This document shows positions 3 through 8,052 of a stretch of DNA of 64,000 bases, one piece after another (within the stretch, counting starts at the first letter, position 1; each line of letters opens with the position of its first letter). Location: positions 800,001 through 864,000 of the forward strand of contig OZ254086.1 of NCBI GenBank assembly GCA_965267575.1, given 5' to 3'. The notes under the pieces were generated by a model that was given only the letters and a program-made list of their open reading frames with translations, was not told the DNA's origin and made no database searches. Source of the stretch: Calditrichales bacterium. GTDB lineage: Bacteria > Calditrichota > Calditrichia > Calditrichales > J004. The translations under genes were made by a program, and so were the position numbers.

Positions 3-818
3 CTAAAAGCTCGCGATGGCCAGCGGCGTTAACAACAAGGGGTGCTGCGGCAGGAGAATCTCGTAGTTTGGAAGCTCGCGGCGGAAGATGTCGGCGCTGC
101 CGGGGAAAAGAAATGTGCCGCCGGTGAGATAGATTTTCTCCACAGGATGTGGCTTAACATGGATGCGGGCGATATCGCTTAGCTTTTCAAATACCGGAGT
201 GACCACATTCAGGTAGTCGCCGTTTTGAGTGCTGCGTTTCAGCTGTTCGGCCTCATCAAAAGGGATGCGCAGGTTGCCGGCCAGCGTCAGCGTAACATGC
301 TCGCCGCCACCCGGCTCATCCGCGGAATAAATGACTTTTCCGTCCTCAAGAATAGCCACGCCGGTGGTGCCGCCACCCACATCCACTACTGCGGCGCGCG
401 CATCGGGCAGCAGCCGCGCCACGCAGGACGGCTCATCTTCCACATGCAGCACATCGCGTCCGGCAGATTCTATGACATTGGTGGAAAGCCTGGCGTCCGT
501 ACCGGGCGGGTAGCTGGTGGCAACGGACGTAATCTCAACAGCGCATTTTTGCTCAATCTTTCCCAGCAGTTTCTTCACAATTTGCGTAGCGCCATGATAA
601 TCCACAACGACGCCATCGCGCACTACGCGTGCCCATTCCAGAAAAGCCGCATACGGATGGCTTTTTTCGTCAACGAGCATCGCCACGATACTGGCCGTGC
701 CTAAATCAACGCCAACACGCCAGTTTTCCGGCGCCTTGACGGGATCTTCTTTATTTAAAATGGAAGTGGCTGTTTTGAGATGGGCGTTTATCTGCTGCCA
801 GGGGTCCATGCCGCTCAT
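3..818 (-). CDS. eutJ: Ethanolamine utilization protein EutJ (actin/Hsp70-like ATPase of BMC loci)
   Basis: GVDLGTASIV and VVDVGGGTTG phosphate loops, VVRDGVVVDY, PPGTD, YSADEPGGG and PLLLTPLAIA are EutJ signatures; start overlaps the eutE stop (ATGA); TAG stop at 3-5. Confidence 0.93.
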   Translation of the reverse strand: MSGMDPWQQINAHLKTATSILNKEDPVKAPENWRVGVDLGTASIVAMLVDEKSHPYAAFLEWARVVRDGVVVDYHGATQIVKKLLGKIEQKCAVEITSVATSYPPGTDARLSTNVIESAGRDVLHVEDEPSCVARLLPDARAAVVDVGGGTTGVAILEDGKVIYSADEPGGGEHVTLTLAGNLRIPFDEAEQLKRSTQNGDYLNVVTPVFEKLSDIARIHVKPHPVEKIYLTGGTFLFPGSADIFRRELPNYEILLPQHPLLLTPLAIASF

Positions 819-2230
819 ACAATACGGAAATTATCAACAAGCACGCAGCGCCGCAGCCGCACAAATGTGCGCGCGGAGGTAACGCCTTCACCGGTGGGTG
901 TGGTGATGGTCATCGAGGTGGAGCCTTCGCCGCCAAAACCGAGCCCGGCATAGTTGGGGCCGTTTTTAACAAAGATGCTGCAGTTGATTTCGTTGGCCAT
1001 GCGGTCCAGGTTATCCAGGTTTTTGGAGTACATCACTGCCGTGTGGCGATTGCCTTTTTCCAGCTCTACGGCCACGTCGATGGCCGTATCGGCGTCGGGG
1101 ACGCGCACCAGCGAAATCACCGGCATCATCAGCTCTTTTACGGCAAAAGGATGGTCCTTGTCGGTTTCCACGAAAAGGAGACGGGTACCTTCGGGTACTT
1201 TCAGGTCAATTTGTTTGGCGATCAGGTCGGCGTTTTTTCCGATCCAGTCACGGTGTGGTGTGGCATCGCGGTTGGGATAATTGTTCATGATAATGGTACC
1301 GAGGCGATCGGCCTGGTCCGCCGTCAGCTCATAAGCGCCGTTTTTGACCATCTCTTCTTTCAGCCTGTCAGCAATCGAATCAACCGCAATGATCTCTTTC
1401 TCGCAGGTGCACATAATGTTGTTGTCAAAGGAGCTGCCATCGACGATGCCTTTTCCGGCGCGGGCCAGGTCGGCGGTTTCATCAACCACTACTGGGGGGT
1501 TACCCGGTCCGGCGGCCATCAGGCGTTTGTCGGTCACCTTTCTCGCGGCCTTAACCACCCCGCCGCCACCGGTCACCACAAGCAAATCGATGCCGGGATA
1601 AACAAACAGCTCCTGTGCCGCCTCAATGGAAGGTTCTTCGATAGTGGTCAGTACGGAATCCGGACCACCCGCCGAAGCGATCGCCTCATTAAGAATAGTA
1701 ATGGCCCGCTGGCACACCCGTTTGGCGCTGGGATGCACGGCAAAAAGAACCGCGTTGCCGGCCGCAACCATGCTGATCGAGTTATTGATGATAGTCGCCC
1801 CGGGATTAGTGGACGGCGTCACCGAAGCAATCACGCCCCAGGCGGCGTTTTCAACCAGCGTCAAACCGTGATCGCCGGTCATAGCCAGCGGCTGCAGATC
1901 CTCGAGGCCCGGCGTTTTATGGGCCTGTACGAGATTCTTTTGCGTCTTTGTCTCCACGCGCCCCAGGCCTGTTTCGGCCACGGCGATTTCGGCCAGCTCT
2001 TTGGCATGCTTTACGGAAGCATCACGCATGGCCTGGATCGCTTTGGCGCGGAATTCCAGGTTGCGCAGGCTCTTTTGGGCGTTCTTTGCCGCTTCAAAAG
2101 CCTGGTCCAGCGTGGGGAAAATACCGGCGGGCAGACTGCCCGTGGAACTGCCGCGACGGGCATCCGTGCTTTCCAGGCGCTGAACGACTTTTTCAACGAT
2201 ATTGTTGATTTCGTTGGCCGATAGACTCAT
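815..2230 (-). CDS. eutE: CoA-acylating aldehyde dehydrogenase, EutE/PduP family, with N-terminal encapsulation peptide
   Basis: TPSTNP, VTGGGGVVKAA, AAGPGNPPVVVDETAD, SFDNNIMCTCEKE (catalytic Cys), ELMMP and TPTGEG motifs; N-terminal amphipathic EINNIVEKVVQRL. Confidence 0.93.
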   Translation of the reverse strand: MSLSANEINNIVEKVVQRLESTDARRGSSTGSLPAGIFPTLDQAFEAAKNAQKSLRNLEFRAKAIQAMRDASVKHAKELAEIAVAETGLGRVETKTQKNLVQAHKTPGLEDLQPLAMTGDHGLTLVENAAWGVIASVTPSTNPGATIINNSISMVAAGNAVLFAVHPSAKRVCQRAITILNEAIASAGGPDSVLTTIEEPSIEAAQELFVYPGIDLLVVTGGGGVVKAARKVTDKRLMAAGPGNPPVVVDETADLARAGKGIVDGSSFDNNIMCTCEKEIIAVDSIADRLKEEMVKNGAYELTADQADRLGTIIMNNYPNRDATPHRDWIGKNADLIAKQIDLKVPEGTRLLFVETDKDHPFAVKELMMPVISLVRVPDADTAIDVAVELEKGNRHTAVMYSKNLDNLDRMANEINCSIFVKNGPNYAGLGFGGEGSTSMTITTPTGEGVTSARTFVRLRRCVLVDNFRIV

Positions 2231-2259: not shown

Positions 2260-2550
2260 TTACTTTTTCTTTGCAGCCGGCAGCTTGATTGGGAAAATAT
2301 CTTCCAGATCGCCGTGCGGGCGCGGGATAACGTGTACCGCAACCAGCTCACCAACGCGTTCGGCTGCAGCAGCTCCGGCATCGGTGGCCGCTTTACAGGC
2401 AGCAACGTCGCCGCGTACCAGGGCCGTTACATAACCGGCGCCGATCTGGGCGTAGCCAACCAATTGTACACGGGCCGCTTTAACCATGGCATCCGAAGCT
2501 TCGATCAAGCCAACCAGACCCTTGGTTTCAATCATTCCTAATGCTTCCAT
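2260..2550 (-). CDS. BMC-H hexameric shell protein (EutM/PduA-like), copy 2
   Basis: [11 protein letters not shown]...DAMVKAA...[15 protein letters not shown]...HVIPRPH; ATG at 2550 with GGAG RBS (the ORF track's 2574 start is an upstream extension). Confidence 0.95.
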
Positions 2551-2560
2551 TTCCGTCTCC

Positions 2561-2848
2561 TTATTCGATCTCACCGGTTAATTTAATGGGATACATATCT
2601 TCCAGTTCGCCATGCGGGCGCGGAATAACATGCACGGATACCAGCTCACCGACACGTTCGGCAGCAGCAGCTCCGGCATCGGTGGCCGCTTTGCAGGCAG
2701 CCACATCGCCGCGCACAAGAGCCGTTACGTAACCGGCGCCGATCTGCTTGTACCCCACAAGCTTCACACGGGCCGCTTTAACCATGGCGTCCGATGCTTC
2801 AATCAGCGCAACAAGACCCTTGGTTTCAATCATGCCTAATGCTTCCAT
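2561..2848 (-). CDS. BMC-H hexameric shell protein (EutM/PduA-like), copy 1
   Basis: Same BMC-H motifs; near-identical to the adjacent copy; AAGGAG RBS. Confidence 0.95.
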
Positions 2849-2863: not shown

Positions 2864-3859
2864 TCAGGCCTGTACATTTTCAGAATTAATTTTAAGATAC
2901 GACGCAGCCAACACCTGCCGCACAATACTCTCCGGCGTACTCTGAACCGGCAGCAGCTGCCAGGAATGACGCAAGCCCACGGTCAGCGGCCCGATGGATG
3001 TATACCCGGCCAGATGCTCCGTCATTTTCTGGGCAATGTTGGCGGATTCTAAAGTTGGAAAAATAAACACATTAGCATTGCCTTTCAAGCGCGCAGCCGG
3101 GGCTTTTTTTTGGGCGACGCTTTGCAGCAGGGCCGTATCAAACTGCAATTCACCGTCGGCCAGCAGGCCGGGGTGATTGTTTTGCAGCCAGCGAGCGGCC
3201 TGTTGCACTTTTTCAACACGGGGATGCTGCGCGCTGCCTTTGCTGGAAAAACTCAGTAACGCCACACGTGGGTCTTCATCCGTAATTTGGCGAAAAGCTT
3301 TGGCCGTGTTGATGGCGATGTGTCCCAGCGCCGGAGGATCGGGATTGACATTCAGGCTGCAGTCACCAAAAGCGTAACTGCGTTGCCCGTCGGGTGAAAT
3401 CATCAGGTAGAAAGCACTGGCCAGCCCGGAAGCAGGATCCACCTCCAACTGCTTCAAGCCATAACGAAACACTTTTTGTGGCTTCGACTGATTCCCGCCT
3501 AAAACGACATCGCAATGCCCGTGGCGCAGGCTGGCGGCGGCCACATTCCAGGGATCGCTGAAAAGACGCTCTGCATCCTGGCGGGTAGCGCCTTTATGGC
3601 GGTTTTCACGCAGGTACTGCTCGATGTAAGGCTGTACGTGGCGCGGTTGCCTGGAGTGAATCACTTTGAGCCCGCGTGTATTTATGCCCAGATCGCGTAA
3701 TTCATAGGGACCGCCCAGAAGTTCCGGCTGTGCCAGACCTTCATCGGCAAGCAAGCGCGCGGCCTGTAAAACACGGATATCTGCTGCTTCGGCAAACAAC
3801 ACGCGCTGCGGCTTCTGGCGGCAGGTGTTCTCGATACGGTTCCAGTAGGCGGGCAGCAC
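2864..3859 (-). CDS. Phosphate acetyltransferase (Pta/EutD) family protein, apparently lacking catalytic residues
   Basis: D.RVLQAA, FGDCSLNVNP, VALLSFSSKGSA, DGELQFDTA, ANVFIFPTLESANI; the canonical DLSRG..DI segment reads LLPVQSTPESI. Confidence 0.85.
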   Translation of the reverse strand: MLPAYWNRIENTCRQKPQRVLFAEAADIRVLQAARLLADEGLAQPELLGGPYELRDLGINTRGLKVIHSRQPRHVQPYIEQYLRENRHKGATRQDAERLFSDPWNVAAASLRHGHCDVVLGGNQSKPQKVFRYGLKQLEVDPASGLASAFYLMISPDGQRSYAFGDCSLNVNPDPPALGHIAINTAKAFRQITDEDPRVALLSFSSKGSAQHPRVEKVQQAARWLQNNHPGLLADGELQFDTALLQSVAQKKAPAARLKGNANVFIFPTLESANIAQKMTEHLAGYTSIGPLTVGLRHSWQLLPVQSTPESIVRQVLAASYLKINSENVQA

Positions 3860-3862
3860 AGT

Positions 3863-4135
3863 CTATTCGCGCTCCTTCAAAATATCGCGCACCGCTTTTT
3901 CTACTTTGACCCGGCTCATGTTGGGACTCTTTAAACGGACCAATACCTCATCGACGATCCTTTGCATGTCACGGTAGCCCACTTTTTCCGTGGCCGATTC
4001 CAGCAGCTCCACACCCAGTTGTTCAGCGCGCTCACGGGCCTGCGGCGTCACGATCTGCCCGGCAGCAACCTCCAGCTTCAGTTGATGCGCGGCATGCACC
4101 TGCTCAATCGTTTCCGCTGATATCAGTTTTTTCAT
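3863..4135 (-). CDS. Small BMC-associated protein resembling the N-terminal domain of EutQ (no cupin), with encapsulation-peptide-like helices
   Basis: MKKLISAETI...IVTPQARERAEQLGV resembles the EutQ N-terminus (MKKLITA...IITP.ARE.A..LG); MQRIVDEVLVRL and VEKAVRDIL helices; ATG at 4135 with AAAGGG RBS. Confidence 0.65.
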   Translation of the reverse strand: MKKLISAETIEQVHAAHQLKLEVAAGQIVTPQARERAEQLGVELLESATEKVGYRDMQRIVDEVLVRLKSPNMSRVKVEKAVRDILKERE

Positions 4136-4151
4136 GTCATTTCCCTTTTTC

Positions 4152-4336
4152 AACCACAGGGCACACAGAGTACGTCACAGAGGGCACGGAGAAAGAAAAA
4201 TTATTTCAAAATAAAAACCTGTGTTTGCTCTGTATCCCCCGTGATTTCTCTGCAAAGCCGCGATTCTATTCTTTAAAAATTTTTATCTCTTTTTATCTCA
4301 GTGTCCTCTGTGCAGCACTCTGAGTCCTCTGCGGTT
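4152..4336. repeat. CACAGAG-based inverted-repeat (hairpin) unit A
   Basis: Arm 4152-4192 aaccacagggcacacagagtacgtcacagagggcacggaga pairs with arm 4296-4336 (reverse complement aaccgcagaggactcagagtgctgcacagaggacactgaga), 32/41 identical by hand count; AT-rich loop with a degenerate extra arm near 4227-4265. Confidence 0.85.
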
Positions 4337-4351
4337 TCCGACGGTTTGCCC

Positions 4352-4735
4352 CTACAGGATGATCCGCTTAATGCCGCTTTTCAATCGTTCCACTTTAAAA
4401 TTTATTAATAATCCGATCTTACACCCTGTGGCTCTAAGATATGTTAAAATCTGCGCATCATAAACCGGATGCAGATTTTCAACACATTTTAGTTCAAGCA
4501 CTACGGAATTCTCAACCAAAAAATCCAGGCGATGTTCTCCTACCATGTGTCCTTTGTAACTCAAAGGAATAGGCATTTGTTGTTTATATCCAATTTGTTG
4601 AATCTCGAATTCGCGGGCAAGAGCGTTCTCATAAACACTCTCCAAAAGCCCCGGACCCAAAGTCGAGTGCACTTCTATGGCACATCCGATAATTCTGTGA
4701 GTCAATTCTTTTAAAGGATATTTTTCTTCTGCCAT
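4352..4735 (-). CDS. GxxExxY protein (PD-(D/E)XK nuclease superfamily)
   Basis: IIGCAIEVH..LGPGLLESVY, RLDFLVE..VVLELK, AQILTYL, GLLINF; 127 aa from ATG 4735. Confidence 0.93.
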   Translation of the reverse strand: MAEEKYPLKELTHRIIGCAIEVHSTLGPGLLESVYENALAREFEIQQIGYKQQMPIPLSYKGHMVGEHRLDFLVENSVVLELKCVENLHPVYDAQILTYLRATGCKIGLLINFKVERLKSGIKRIIL

Positions 4736-4744
4736 CTTTTTTTT

Positions 4745-4867
4745 AGCCACAGAGGGCGCAGAGTACAGCACAGAGAACACAGAGCAAATACAAAGAAAAG
4801 TTTATTTAAAAAAAAGAAACCTATTTCTCTGTGGCCTCTGTGAAAATCCTCTGTGCCCTCTGTGGTT
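4745..4867. repeat. CACAGAG-based inverted-repeat (hairpin) unit B
   Basis: Arm 4745-4784 agccacagagggcgcagagtacagcacagagaacacagag pairs with arm 4827-4867 ctctgtggcctctgtgaaaatcctctgtgccctctgtggtt; A-rich loop similar to unit A. Confidence 0.88.
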
Positions 4868-4872
4868 TTCCG

Positions 4873-5640
4873 TTACCTCAGCCCCAGACGAGACATTATC
4901 TCCAGAGCCAGTTCGGCATACTCTTTGGCGCCGCTGGCCGACGGGTTTTTATGGATGATCGGTTTTTGTGCGTCGAAGGCCTCTACCAGTTTGCTGTTCA
5001 CACCAATGGCCGTTTCGAACACATCCTTGCCAAAGCGCTCACGCAGGTGGTTCAACACATCGTGCGCCACTCGGGTACGCCGGTCGAATTGCGTGCCGAA
5101 GTAGCCCAGGATCTTGAGCCGTGGATTTAACCGCCGCTGTACCTTGGCGACAGACTTCAGCGTCAGCTCCAACCCGGTTAAGGCGAGGTACTGCGTCTGC
5201 ACGGGTATCAGCACAAACTGCGCGATGGCCAGCGCGTTGAGTCCCAGCGAGCCCATATTGGGCGGGCTGTCAAATAAAATGATATCATAGCCCCGCGGCA
5301 AATTGTTTTTAGTCAGGAAAAATTCGCTCTCCTGTTCTTGCAGCATCTCATCGTAAAAATCGCTCAACGAAGGTTCAGACGGCAGGCAAAACAGGTTATC
5401 GTAACGGGTGGGATAAATGAATTCACCCAACGGTTTTGTTTTGGTTACGATGAAATCGCATAGTGTGGCAATGCCGCTTTCGGCATGGTTAAAACCCAGG
5501 TGAATGGATGCGCTCGCCGCGGGATCGAGATCAATCACCAGCGTTTTATAGCCGGCCTGGGCAAAGCAGGCCGCCAGGTTTACGACGCTGGTGGTTTTGC
5601 CGACGCCGCCTTTGTTGTTTAGCACCACGACGGTTTTCAT
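4873..5640 (-). CDS. ParA/Soj-family ATPase (candidate BMC-positioning ATPase)
   Basis: Deviant Walker A NNKGGVGKTT, LVIDLDP, ILFDSPP, IPVQTQYLAL, FDRRT DNA-binding patch; no parB in the window. Confidence 0.92.
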   Translation of the reverse strand: MKTVVVLNNKGGVGKTTSVVNLAACFAQAGYKTLVIDLDPAASASIHLGFNHAESGIATLCDFIVTKTKPLGEFIYPTRYDNLFCLPSEPSLSDFYDEMLQEQESEFFLTKNNLPRGYDIILFDSPPNMGSLGLNALAIAQFVLIPVQTQYLALTGLELTLKSVAKVQRRLNPRLKILGYFGTQFDRRTRVAHDVLNHLRERFGKDVFETAIGVNSKLVEAFDAQKPIIHKNPSASGAKEYAELALEIMSRLGLR

Positions 5641-5641
5641 A

Positions 5642-6277
5642 TCAACCTCGCTGCGGTAACGGGTAATAAAGCTGCTTCACTTTTTCCACGCGCCCCTCGT
5701 CAATCAACCCTTTAAGCACAACACGCGCCTTTGCCGAATCGAGATTCGTTTCAGTAGCGATTTCTTCCAGTGTCGCGCCATCTTTGCCTGCCCCGAGAAA
5801 CGCCATGATCGCGTCAGCGTTTTCAGTGGGTGTCTCTTGTTTGGGCGGCATTACCGGCGGACCTTTTATGGCTTTTTTCTTTTTGGGCGATCGTTTTTTG
5901 GGTGGACTTTTTTTTGCGGGTTTTGCGGGAGGCGCCGTCTTCCGCGCGGGTGTTACAGGTGGCTTCTTCTCGGTGCCGTCTACCGGGCCTGTCGATACGG
6001 GACCAAGTGTCCCGGCCACAAGCCCCTCCGTATCATCAAATGGTCGCGGGATTACATGTGAGGTCACAAACTGGCCCAGTCTTTCGGCGGCGGCGCGTCC
6101 GGCATCCACGGCGGCCTGAACCGCGCCCAGCTCACCTTCCACGACCACGGTCACCAAACCGGCGCCAACTTCCCGGCGCTGCACGATATGCACTTTGGCC
6201 GCCTTCAACATCGCGTCCGCTGCTTCCAGCGATCCGGTGAGACCCAGCGTTTCCACAAAACCGTAAGATAAAGCCAT
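5642..6277 (-). CDS. BMC-H shell protein with Lys/Pro-rich linker and C-terminal winged HTH (EutK-like architecture)
   Basis: N-terminal BMC domain (GFVETLG...DAMLKAA...HVIPRP); basic linker KKSPPKKRSPKKKK; wHTH-like ATLEEIATETNLDSAKARVVLKGLIDEGRVEK. Confidence 0.85.
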   Translation of the reverse strand: MALSYGFVETLGLTGSLEAADAMLKAAKVHIVQRREVGAGLVTVVVEGELGAVQAAVDAGRAAAERLGQFVTSHVIPRPFDDTEGLVAGTLGPVSTGPVDGTEKKPPVTPARKTAPPAKPAKKSPPKKRSPKKKKAIKGPPVMPPKQETPTENADAIMAFLGAGKDGATLEEIATETNLDSAKARVVLKGLIDEGRVEKVKQLYYPLPQRG

Positions 6278-6347: not shown

Positions 6348-7022
6348 TTATCCTTCGCCGCCCGGCAACGATTGCAGAAAGGCCTCACGGAACGATTCAC
6401 CGACAGGCAGTTTACTCTTCCCGATTACAACGTGGCTGCTGCTGTAAGAGCTGATCTTACGGGTGTTGACAATGTAGGATTTATGGATTCGCCGGAACCA
6501 GGACGGCAGTTTGGCCAGGGCCTGGGACGTCGATTCACGGGCCAGAATTTCCTGCCCCACAGCATGGTAAATCATATAGTTGCCGTCCTTTTGCAGGAAA
6601 AGGACCTCATCGATCTTCACGATATGGCTCTGCGGCCCGCTCTTTATAATAAGCGTTTGGCCGGCTTCTCCCTGCCACGCCTGCAAAGCCTTGCCAACGG
6701 CTTTTGTAAATCTCTCCAGGCTGATGGGTTTAAGCAGGTAGTCCAGCGCCTGCACATCATAACTATCCACGGCGAACTCGGCATGGGCGGTAGTAAAAAT
6801 GATTTTCGTCTCCGAAGCAATCATCTGCGACAGCGCCAGGCCCGAAATATCCGGCATGTTGATGTCCAGGAACACCAGGTCGACCGGATGCTTTCCGAGG
6901 TAGTCGAACGCCTTCAAACCGTTGCGGAAAGTGGCGCTTAGTTCGATGGTGTCAAAATGCTGCAGGTAGCTTTTAAGCAGCTCGATGGCCCGCGGTTCGT
7001 CATCAACGATGATCGCTTGCAT
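6348..7022 (-). CDS. LytTR-family response regulator
   Basis: IVDDEP, FLDINMP, FTTAH, LDYLLKP receiver motifs; FRRIHKSYIVN LytTR motif. Confidence 0.93.
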   Translation of the reverse strand: MQAIIVDDEPRAIELLKSYLQHFDTIELSATFRNGLKAFDYLGKHPVDLVFLDINMPDISGLALSQMIASETKIIFTTAHAEFAVDSYDVQALDYLLKPISLERFTKAVGKALQAWQGEAGQTLIIKSGPQSHIVKIDEVLFLQKDGNYMIYHAVGQEILARESTSQALAKLPSWFRRIHKSYIVNTRKISSYSSSHVVIGKSKLPVGESFREAFLQSLPGGEG

Positions 7023-8052
7023 CGGTCACAATCTCCAGTTTTACGCTAAACGTGTTATTCGCCTCAATCTCCAGGCGGTGTCGCCCGGGATAGATTAACG
7101 TCAGCCGCTTGCGTGTCGCGGCAATCCCCTCACCGCCGCGTTCCGCCGGCAGCGCATCGTGACGGCTGTTTTCCACGGCAAAAACGATGGCATTCGCGGA
7201 AGAGAGGTCAAAATCAATCCTGATAAACGATTTCTTCTCTGGGCGCGCGCCATGTTTGAAAGCATTTTCGACGAAGGGAACAAACAGTCCGGGCTCCACC
7301 CGCTGTTGATCGTATTCTCCGGTAATGTGCAGCTTAAAATCAATCTCGCTTTCTTCAAAGCGCAGCTGCTGCAGGGCAGCATAGTTGCGGATAAAGTCAA
7401 TTTCTCCGGCAACCGGCACCTCGCCATCGCGGGTTTCGTAAACCACGTAACGCAGCAAGGCAGAGAGCCGGTCGATGGAATCGGCCAAAGCAGGGTTTTG
7501 AAGCGGATCGACCATTGACAAAAGGTTATTAAGCACGTTAAAGAGAAAGTGCGGTTGTAGCTGCATGCGCAACAGGGACAACTCGGCTTCTCTTTTTTGC
7601 AAAGTCAGCATCTGCAATTGTTGCTGACCACGCAGCCAGCTTTTACCGATGCCGTAAGTGGACGACACCGCGTAATAGAAAAAGACAATGCCGCCCAAAA
7701 CCGGCGCTGACAAAACAGGCCCCTCGGCGACAACCCGCAGTTCTATCAAAGCCAGTGCGATAATCAATACGATAAAAAACAATGAAACGGATTGAGCAAC
7801 GGTTTTTAGCCGTCGTCCGGTATCGTCGAGACGGGCCAGCAGGGCGCGATTGAGATAGAAGAGTACCATCGATAAAACAACGGTGAGCAAAAGCTGGTAA
7901 ACAAGTTCCGCGCTGCGGCTAATCCATACCCGTTCCTCGCCGTTGATGATCTCCACTTCATGCGCTTCAATAGAAAAAGTTGCTAAAATCAGCCAGGCGC
8001 TGCCCGCCCAAAACACAATATTGAAGGCAATCTCAATCCATTTTCGGTTCAT
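7003..8052 (-). CDS. LytS/YehU-type membrane sensor histidine kinase
   Basis: Four TM segments; QLQPHFLFNVLNN H-box, VENAFKHG, GEGIAATRKRL. Confidence 0.92.
   Translation of the reverse strand: MNRKWIEIAFNIVFWAGSAWLILATFSIEAHEVEIINGEERVWISRSAELVYQLLLTVVLSMVLFYLNRALLARLDDTGRRLKTVAQSVSLFFIVLIIALALIELRVVAEGPVLSAPVLGGIVFFYYAVSSTYGIGKSWLRGQQQLQMLTLQKREAELSLLRMQLQPHFLFNVLNNLLSMVDPLQNPALADSIDRLSALLRYVVYETRDGEVPVAGEIDFIRNYAALQQLRFEESEIDFKLHITGEYDQQRVEPGLFVPFVENAFKHGARPEKKSFIRIDFDLSSANAIVFAVENSRHDALPAERGGEGIAATRKRLTLIYPGRHRLEIEANNTFSVKLEIVTDASDHR

Follow-up and report, generated by a model that had tools for sequence, protein, structure and literature searches.

The stretch of DNA analysed here, referred to below as the window, comprises 64,000 nucleotides (nt) from a Calditrichales bacterium, and corresponds to G000:C1:800001-864000 of a single-contig 4.73-Mb genome (G000, the window's own genome). 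It carries a bacterial microcompartment (BMC) operon on the minus strand, running from 6277 down to 3 in window coordinates. The first two genes of this operon, which encode a shell protein with a C-terminal extension and a ParA-type ATPase, are considered here as a candidate system for positioning the organelle. Their features, and the two genes upstream of them, are as follows.

5642..6277, minus strand: EutK-like shell protein of 211 residues, with a BMC-H domain, a basic disordered linker and a C-terminal winged helix; gene 1 of the operon
6041..6268, minus strand (match G000:C1:806041-806268): BMC-H domain, residues 4-79 (PF00936, E 1.6e-25)
5831..6004, minus strand: Lys/Arg/Pro-rich disordered linker, about residues 92-149 (AlphaFold2 (AF2) model, composition)
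5645..5830, minus strand: winged helix-turn-helix, residues 150-211, the predicted ParA-docking surface (AF2 model, invariant columns, complex model)
4873..5640, minus strand: BMC-associated ParA ATPase of 255 residues, Soj-like, with signature Lys10 (PF13614)
6348-7022, minus strand: LytTR response regulator, directly upstream of the operon
7003-8052, minus strand: histidine kinase, upstream of the operon

An earlier note on this DNA (the original prediction) had placed the two genes 1 nt apart at the head of the BMC operon, and this arrangement is borne out: the junction of the two open reading frames (ORFs) reads TGA-t-ATG, and both genes directly follow the LytTR regulator and the histidine kinase. 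The architecture claimed for the 211-residue protein is likewise present, namely a BMC-H domain, a Lys/Pro-rich linker that contains the quoted KKSPPKKRSPKKKK, and a winged helix-turn-helix tail. The linker, 58 residues in length, holds 16 K+R, 15 P and 3 D+E. This composition is unique in the genome, since in a scan of 3214 long ORFs for a 58-residue segment with at least 16 K+R, at least 10 P and at most 4 D+E, the only ORF with such a segment was that of the shell fusion. An AF2 model of the tail, made with an alignment of 27 orthologues, gives the linker no secondary structure (block predicted local distance difference test (pLDDT) 57-71), and residues 150-211 three helices and a beta-hairpin wing at pLDDT 92-95. 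Among 30 orthologues, the linkers are 18-73 residues long, cannot be aligned, and are K/R-rich in nearly all (the exception being locus L002, where acidic residues outnumber basic ones), with a run of at least three K/R in 22. The winged helix can be aligned among orthologues, and seven of its columns are invariant (G167, R185, K189, D193, E198, K199 and Y204). Its match to EutK_C is weak (E 2.9e-4, 21.2 bits, under the 27.5-bit cut-off), as is that to HTH_IclR, and the tail profile matches 3I71, a structure of the EutK C-terminus, at E 0.005. With the NCBIfam EutK equivalog the protein reaches 89.6 bits (cut-off 218), and only its BMC part is matched. A Foldseek search of the PDB with the winged helix returned no row at E<=0.001, the best being generic Z-alpha, IclR and MarR folds.

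The 255-residue protein is a Soj-like ParA, as had been claimed, with KGGVGKT including signature Lys10, and FDRRT at 185-189. PF13614 (AAA_31) matches it at E 4e-44 over model positions 1-177 of 177, and the features that define the ParA/Soj family are all present (NNKGGVGKTT with K10 and K15, and invariant D37/D39 and D124). Its closest solved relatives are Myxococcus xanthus ParA (8RAY) and Thermus thermophilus Soj (E 1e-43 to 1e-44); solved McdA matches residues 1-169 only, at E 2e-12. The genome has a chromosomal Soj-ParB pair at C1:2728641-2730264 and two further ParA paralogues. Members of the BMC ParA clade are 48-73% identical, versus 37% to the chromosomal Soj, and in a tree of 40 rows (one of which, L019, contained an internal stop) the Soj group is split from all BMC-linked ParAs by a branch of 2.56 with support 97/96. 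The BMC ParA is not the chromosomal Soj, and the grouping with it that had been named as evidence against the original prediction does not appear. R188 is the equivalent of BsSoj R189 and TtSoj R182, and K217 that of BsSoj R218 and HpSoj K230, as mapped via structure-hit alignments and the residue lists available in PMC6393308; both are invariant in 26 orthologues. Mutation of BsSoj R189 or R218 is reported to abolish nucleoid binding in Bacillus subtilis (PMC6393308). The position of HpSoj K199 is H193 here, and K or R in most orthologues. Judged by these alignments, the BMC ParA keeps, in R188 and K217, equivalents of residues for non-specific DNA binding, and it is predicted to bind DNA.

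Two further observations concern the ParA family. Residues 89-108 (window ~5317-5376) bear a PSE-x-x-LS-[DE]-FY motif in all BMC-linked ParAs, those of Ignavibacteria included, and chromosomal Soj has unrelated residues at these positions. A third ParA paralogue, 38% identical, adjoins a CheW-like gene (G000:C1:608390-610734, minus strand), which is reminiscent of ParA-type systems positioning chemotaxis arrays.

To look for co-occurrence of this ParA clade with EutK-like genes had been proposed as a check, and the set surveyed for it comprised 86 Calditrichota species genomes (clade cut-off E<=1e-55). The ParA clade occurs in 35 of the 86, the window's own included, all of one order: it is found in 34 of the 38 other members of that order and in none of the 47 genomes elsewhere in the phylum. 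Strong matches of the tail profile (E<=2.9e-15) occur in exactly the same 35 genomes, and two more weak matches (E 3e-4 and 5e-4) lie within long unrelated frames. ParA and the tail are each present twice in two of the genomes, G010 and G013. In all 37 pairs the fusion lies directly upstream of ParA on the same strand, as established by tblastn for 30 of 30 loci and by match coordinates for the remaining seven; the fusion stop and the ParA start overlap or are no more than ~15 nt apart in most loci, with ~50 nt as the maximum. Of the four order members without the pair, two (G030 and G038, the latter 64% complete) lack BMC domains altogether, G004 has a tandem BMC-T only, and G025 has a BMC-T and a single BMC-H that no Pta gene adjoins. 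Because no main BMC locus was found in any of these four genomes, none of them tests whether the pair can be separated.

The pair is also found beyond this phylum and beyond this type of operon. A search of 1.84 billion representative proteins with the tail profile gave 290 matches at E<=0.001. A Pfam scan took in 60 single-stretch matches among the best 150 of the 290, and 28 of the 60 were BMC-H proteins of 165-237 residues with the tail at their C-terminus. One tail-protein cluster carries Ignavibacteria names, and a metagenome scan with the Ignavibacteria-type protein found 10 loci, five of them with the full fusion; in all five, ParA starts at the stop of the fusion and is 48% identical to that of the window. 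A metagenome contig scan with the window ParA found four loci, two of which were distant Pirellula ParAs. At E<=1e-60, relatives of this ParA fall into 123 clusters, all annotated only as ParA or chromosome partitioning; the named ones are Calditrichota-type, except one labelled 'bacterium', plus one from Ignavibacteriaceae. In L035 (G010:C21:60000-75725, the second pair of that genome), the pair is part of a complete ethanolamine utilization (EUT) locus with the order EutA-EutB-EutC-EutL-[fusion]-ParA-EutS-EutP-EutQ-EutT-Pta-three BMC-H-EutN-EutE, and L039, an Ignavibacteria-type contig, has the same complete order. The window's own copy heads a Pta/aldehyde dehydrogenase operon, not an EUT locus. 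We take the slot after EutL to be the position of eutK in the enteric operon, and the order in L035 and L039 to be a circular permutation of the enteric eut order. Given its BMC-H plus winged-helix build and the slot after EutL, the fusion is EutK-like by architecture and position, despite failing the curated EutK cut-offs. The fusion and ParA travel as a module, in two locus types and two lineages.

Two kinds of tail-profile matches stand apart from these. Candidate stand-alone forms of the tail (P0003, P0032 and similar, among the best 150) were discarded, as the short matches that were read proved to be fragments of fusions. Six further proteins (P0107, P0116, P0119, P0123, P0128 and P0131) have a related C-terminal winged helix with the motif HPxGIxLxxI...L.DxxxxEKI..xYYP. 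The P0107-type proteins are 185-292 residues long, with coiled-coil-like repeats, no Pfam family and, as far as seen, no ParA link; they may be surface adaptors of another structure.

It could be argued that these two genes have no functional link, the ParA being a passenger partition gene, or the winged helix a transcription factor domain that regulates the operon. The database names of the two proteins ('chromosome partitioning protein' and 'EutM/BMC domain protein') would suit this idea, and winged helices of the IclR/MarR type are usually regulators. We find it barely plausible, since the 37 of 37 adjacent pairs hold across about 50% sequence divergence and two locus types, ParA is more conserved than any other protein of the set (mean p-distance 0.36 versus 0.61 for Pta), and the operon has a separate LytTR two-component regulator upstream.

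A structure model of the ParA dimer with the linker or the winged helix had been proposed as another check. Two ParA chains, two ATP, two Mg and the 120-residue tail were modelled in one run set with three controls. The complex scored 0.72 and the best of the three controls 0.00. The mark of 0.72 is reached by 116 of 157 solved complexes and by 2 of 215 mismatched pairs, a rough calibration (own alignments, riding ligands), and a pass in this score supports binding without showing it. The runs share at least 36% of contacts, with partner pLDDT of at least 62. On the tail, the contacts are tail residues 79, 90-91, 94-95, 98, 101-102, 107-112 and 114, which make up helix 3 and the wing; on the other side, one ParA subunit contributes residues 56, 61-62, 65-67, 91, 94-95, 98-99 and 102, and the second subunit 134, 166-167 and 169-171. 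Of the seven invariant tail columns, five belong to the interface (P 0.0003 when counted over the tail and 0.007 over its folded part), and the conservation analyses of both tail and ParA preceded the complex model. The basic linker was not placed in the model.

The predicted interface coincides in part with a known partner site of ParA. The ParB-peptide pocket of M. xanthus ParA was mapped by mutagenesis (V116, L150, L152, L155, L187 and L192) and nuclear magnetic resonance, and is reported to span both ParA subunits opposite the DNA face (PMC12462528). A site of this kind, because it spans both subunits, exists only in the ATP dimer. We transferred the pocket through 8RAY, in which native numbering is chain numbering + 19, and all sixteen of sixteen residue identities agree with the alignment. 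Eight of the 16 pocket equivalents are in the predicted interface (P 1e-6), and five of the 16 (S93, M129, T160, K166 and R169) carry a residue that is absent from nine Soj sequences, with F95 and Y96 of the BMC ParA adjoining them. The clade-specific ParA residues and the invariant tail residues are kept in the Ignavibacteria pair. The clade-specific residues in the pocket suggest that the canonical partner pocket has seemingly been remodelled for a different ligand. Our model thus predicts that the winged helix docks, by helix 3 and the wing, in the pocket across the ParA dimer interface. We speculate from this that EutK-type shell proteins are shell-integral ParA adaptors, whose winged helix serves as a docking module in the ParB-peptide pocket rather than as a DNA binder, although we offer this wider proposal only tentatively. 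The division of labour in the original prediction, in which the linker stimulates ParA and/or the winged helix tethers the organelle to DNA, is not the one seen in the model, where the confident contacts with ParA are made by the winged helix and the linker is left unplaced. The linker may act as a spacer, as an additional electrostatic link to DNA or ParA, or as an ATPase stimulator. A tether to DNA through the winged helix gained no specific support, as the same face would be needed for ParA and the domain has a net charge of -2 in the window's protein.

The main rival to docking on ParA is a direct tether to the nucleoid (or to RNA), in which the linker and the winged helix bind nucleic acid, and ParA is independent of the tail or contacts it otherwise. 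A proposal of this kind exists for the positively charged EutK tail. The K/R/P-rich linker, with its SPKK-like runs, its stretches of basic residues in most orthologues and its composition unique in the proteome, would suit such a role, as would the resemblance of the fold to nucleic-acid-binding winged helices, the weak EutK_C and 3I71 matches, and the mean net charge of the winged helix (+3.4 among orthologues); moreover, enteric EutK affects positioning without a dedicated ParA. However, the model puts the invariant residues of helix 3 and the wing on ParA, and the charge of the domain ranges from -2 to +9 among the orthologues, with the lowest value in the window's genome. Furthermore, a strong non-specific DNA anchor would immobilize the cargo and make a strictly linked ParA superfluous, and none of the 86 genomes has the tail without ParA. 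We therefore consider the direct tether unlikely.

Several points weigh against docking on ParA, and against the positioning function that we derive from it. The winged helix has a generic nucleic-acid-binding fold and the linker looks histone-like, so that direct DNA binding by the tail is possible. The interface is a matter of model confidence, and a structure predictor might place a chain in a known ParA partner pocket simply because it has learnt that pocket, though the three controls scored 0.00. The clade-specific ParA positions overlap the interface modestly (4 of 18, P 0.07). In the putative DNA patch of ParA, two of four HpSoj positions are non-basic, namely V214 (K227) and S234 (K247). 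The correlation of distance matrices is not specific either (r 0.61 for ParA and winged helix versus 0.81 for ParA and Pta, with a partial r of 0.25). As neighbours in one operon are co-inherited and the genomes are kin, the perfect co-occurrence is not independent evidence; the counts show a stable module and not independent events. In addition, 24 of the 47 Calditrichota genomes outside the order have BMC domains and neither gene of the pair, which, together with the lack of a dedicated ParA for enteric EutK, indicates that the module is not required for BMC function generally.

On balance, we suggest with moderate confidence that the two genes encode a system that positions a catabolic microcompartment by a ParA diffusion ratchet, and in which the shell itself contains the adaptor. 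Through its BMC-H domain, the EutK-like protein would become part of the shell. In the orientation expected from published shell structures, each hexamer would expose six tails on the outside, each a flexible basic arm of 20-70 residues with a small winged helix at its end. The dedicated ParA would bind ATP, dimerize and, by homology, sit on the nucleoid via its conserved basic residues. The winged helix would then dock by helix 3 and the wing in the bipartite pocket of the ParA dimer, at the site used by chromosomal ParB peptides, facing away from the DNA. The shell would be held to nucleoid-bound ParA by many weak tethers, and their release upon ATP hydrolysis, stimulated by the partner, could space the organelles by a diffusion ratchet, in the way that carboxysomes are spaced by McdAB. 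It could also be that ParA serves compartment assembly or number control, nucleating or separating nascent shells via the tail, rather than spacing them on the nucleoid. The tail-ParA model is equally compatible with such a role, which would also be in keeping with the position at the head of the operon, the translational coupling to a shell gene, and the assembly and encapsulation defects that are reported alongside the mislocalization of eutK mutants (bioRxiv 10.64898/2026.10.07.757396). We regard it as improbable, because the equivalents of the DNA-binding Arg and Lys are invariant and every characterized Soj-like relative found acts on the nucleoid.

The remaining genes of the operon are listed here.

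4352..4780, minus strand: GxxExxY / PD-(D/E)XK_3 gene, outside the module (PF13366 E 1e-42, TIGR04256)
3863..4153, minus strand: stand-alone homologue of the EutQ N-terminus, 96 residues (NCBIfam EutQ positions 1-51, E 1e-7)
2864-3859, minus strand: Pta
2561-2848, minus strand: BMC-H, plain
2260-2574, minus strand: BMC-H, plain
815-2230, minus strand: acylating aldehyde dehydrogenase with an N-terminal targeting helix
3-818, minus strand: EutJ

It had been claimed that the window contains no parB or recognizable mcdB, and none was seen: the 64-kb window has no ParB_N domain, and the sole one in the genome, at C1:2729479, is beside the chromosomal Soj and not the BMC ParA. A reading of ORFs and domains, and of the genes after ParA in 30 loci, revealed no McdB-like gene in the operon, in which no gene fits the definition of McdB (a small protein with much disorder whose gene directly follows mcdA, with a charged N-terminus and an invariant C-terminal Trp or an aromatic residue among its last four). 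The tail of the shell protein is disordered and basic, but it does not fit this definition either: it belongs to a shell protein encoded upstream of ParA, and its invariant Tyr sits in the wing, within the last four residues in only 8 of 27 orthologues. One candidate adaptor was the 96-residue ORF (3863-4153): ParA partners are usually encoded directly downstream (PMC8262871), and 22 of 30 loci have a homologue after ParA (only 27 of these 30 reach past ParA). If it were the real McdB-like adaptor, the shell tail would be unrelated to ParA. However, the protein shares 37% identity with the N-terminal part of the full-length EutQ encoded in L035, and AF2 gives it four helices (13-21, 37-46, 60-74 and 81-95) with a flexible middle. 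EutQ 1-99 is reported to have four helices and a flexible H2-H3 region, with H1/H2 binding the shell and H3/H4 binding cargo targeting peptides (PMC12487888). The EUT loci have EutS and EutP after ParA, with the EutQ N-terminal region two genes on, within full-length EutQ; in the window's genome, an unrelated gene intervenes between ParA and the 96-residue gene; and the protein lacks both a disordered basic N-terminus and a C-terminal aromatic residue. The EutQ homology, the four-helix build and the order of the EUT loci lead us to read it as a probable EutQ-type shell-cargo linker, not as a ParA adaptor, and we rejected it as McdB, which we consider highly improbable. A true McdB elsewhere in the locus, named beforehand as an outcome against the prediction, was not found. 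The idea of an adaptor fused into the shell, with no separate McdB, thus drew support from the adjacency of the two genes, the second lineage and locus type, the non-Soj ParA and the complex model, but the roles proposed for the linker and the winged helix are not those that the model shows.

Other features of the operon and genome concern the organelle rather than its positioning. The GxxExxY / PD-(D/E)XK_3 gene between ParA and the EutQ-N-like gene occurs in one of 30 loci, the window's own, which gives it the look of a recent insertion, the operon being tightly packed otherwise. The same genome has a tandem BMC-T at C1:126566-127114, in a satellite locus (C1:126566-128688) with an adjoining RnfC/PduS-like gene, and four BMC-P genes distributed over three places that are distant from the main operon. 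Further satellite loci are found at C1:1596806-1599253 and C1:2454791-2456529. One satellite locus has a phosphomutase, a BMC-P gene and a DeoC-type aldolase after the BMC-P gene, and another a phosphopentomutase-like gene followed by two BMC-P genes; the BMC, BMC-P and DeoC assignments come from domain scans, and the mutase and RnfC/PduS labels were given by eye from translations. Because the other shell genes are scattered and lie beside such enzyme genes, the organelle is probably a fragmented metabolosome of the sugar-phosphate type (deoxyribose-phosphate, similar to sugar-phosphate utilization loci).

ParA genes in or beside non-carboxysome BMC operons have already been published (Axen 2014, PMC4207490; MacCready 2021, PMC8359340; review, PMC13052382). 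Like the present analysis, these reports, in their available text, place a ParA gene inside a metabolosome locus and propose organelle positioning from sequence. Unlike it, that text names ParA, in some cases along with a small partner that has a C-terminal tyrosine, and no EutK-like fusion. Our literature search found no link between an EutK-like fusion and an adjacent ParA, though Figure 8f of MacCready 2021 and the diagrams of Sutter 2021 may depict this type of locus, and no proposal of a winged helix as a ParA ligand. The text supplements of the Sutter 2021 BMC catalogue gave 0 matches to ParA or its Pfam codes.

How catabolic microcompartments are distributed and inherited is the question that the EutK-like/ParA operon addresses. 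Deletion of eutK in Salmonella is reported to lead to polar, static Eut compartments, and its authors speculated on a ParB-like role for EutK (PMC12487888). In the other study, eutK mutants are described as having polar or bipolar aggregates and compared with mcdA and mcdB mutants (bioRxiv 10.64898/2026.10.07.757396). According to the available parts of these two recent studies, EutK is needed for compartment distribution, and neither knows its partner. In the operon described here, an EutK-like shell protein is naturally paired with a ParA of its own, and the model names contact residues on both sides. If the proposed docking is true, the winged helix would be the first folded-domain ligand of the ParB-peptide pocket, and the organelle the first with a ParA adaptor as part of the cargo itself. 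It would also offer a mechanism for the unexplained polar, static eutK phenotype, and suggest that EutK of enteric bacteria makes use of a ParA/MinD-type ATPase from another locus. Moreover, it would provide a two-gene spacing module for engineered shells in synthetic biology, and widen the repertoire of partner recognition by ParA. Thus, we suggest that the EutK-like/ParA pairing might be a testable way of spacing catabolic protein organelles along the chromosome.

The pairing shares features with three known systems and departs from each of them. As in the McdA/McdB systems of carboxysomes (beta in Synechococcus elongatus, alpha in Halothiobacillus neapolitanus), a ParA-type ATPase is encoded with shell genes, and nucleoid action of the ATPase is presumed, with a multivalent adaptor on the organelle surface. 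Like alpha-McdA and type 2 beta-McdA, as described in the available text of PMC8359340, the BMC ParA has the signature lysine. In contrast, a small disordered McdB is not encoded separately: the adaptor would be the C-terminal extension of a shell hexamer, encoded upstream and not downstream, and it is predicted to contact ParA by a folded winged helix and not by a charged N-terminal peptide. The ATPase itself resembles Soj (E 1e-44) far more than it does solved McdA (E 2e-12). The second relative is EutK of Salmonella and Escherichia coli, with which the shell protein shares the architecture of a BMC-H domain plus a C-terminal helix-turn-helix, the slot after EutL in the EUT loci L035 and L039, and the weak matches to EutK_C and 3I71; enteric EutK is reported to control the distribution of Eut compartments. 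Unlike the enteric protein, it scores under the EutK_C and EutK equivalog cut-offs, its linker is longer and more basic, a dedicated ParA always follows it, which the enteric operon does not have, and it is also used in a locus that is not for ethanolamine. The third is the ParABS system of M. xanthus. The predicted site spans both ParA subunits and includes the equivalents of L155, L187, Q190, L192 and the D110-L118 helix described in the available text of PMC12462528. In this case, however, the ligand would be a folded domain rather than a short amphipathic helix, and the cargo a protein shell rather than DNA. The pocket differs accordingly in its residues from that of M. xanthus ParA, with L187 changed to K166, Q190 to R169 and L150 to M129, and with the new F95 and Y96.

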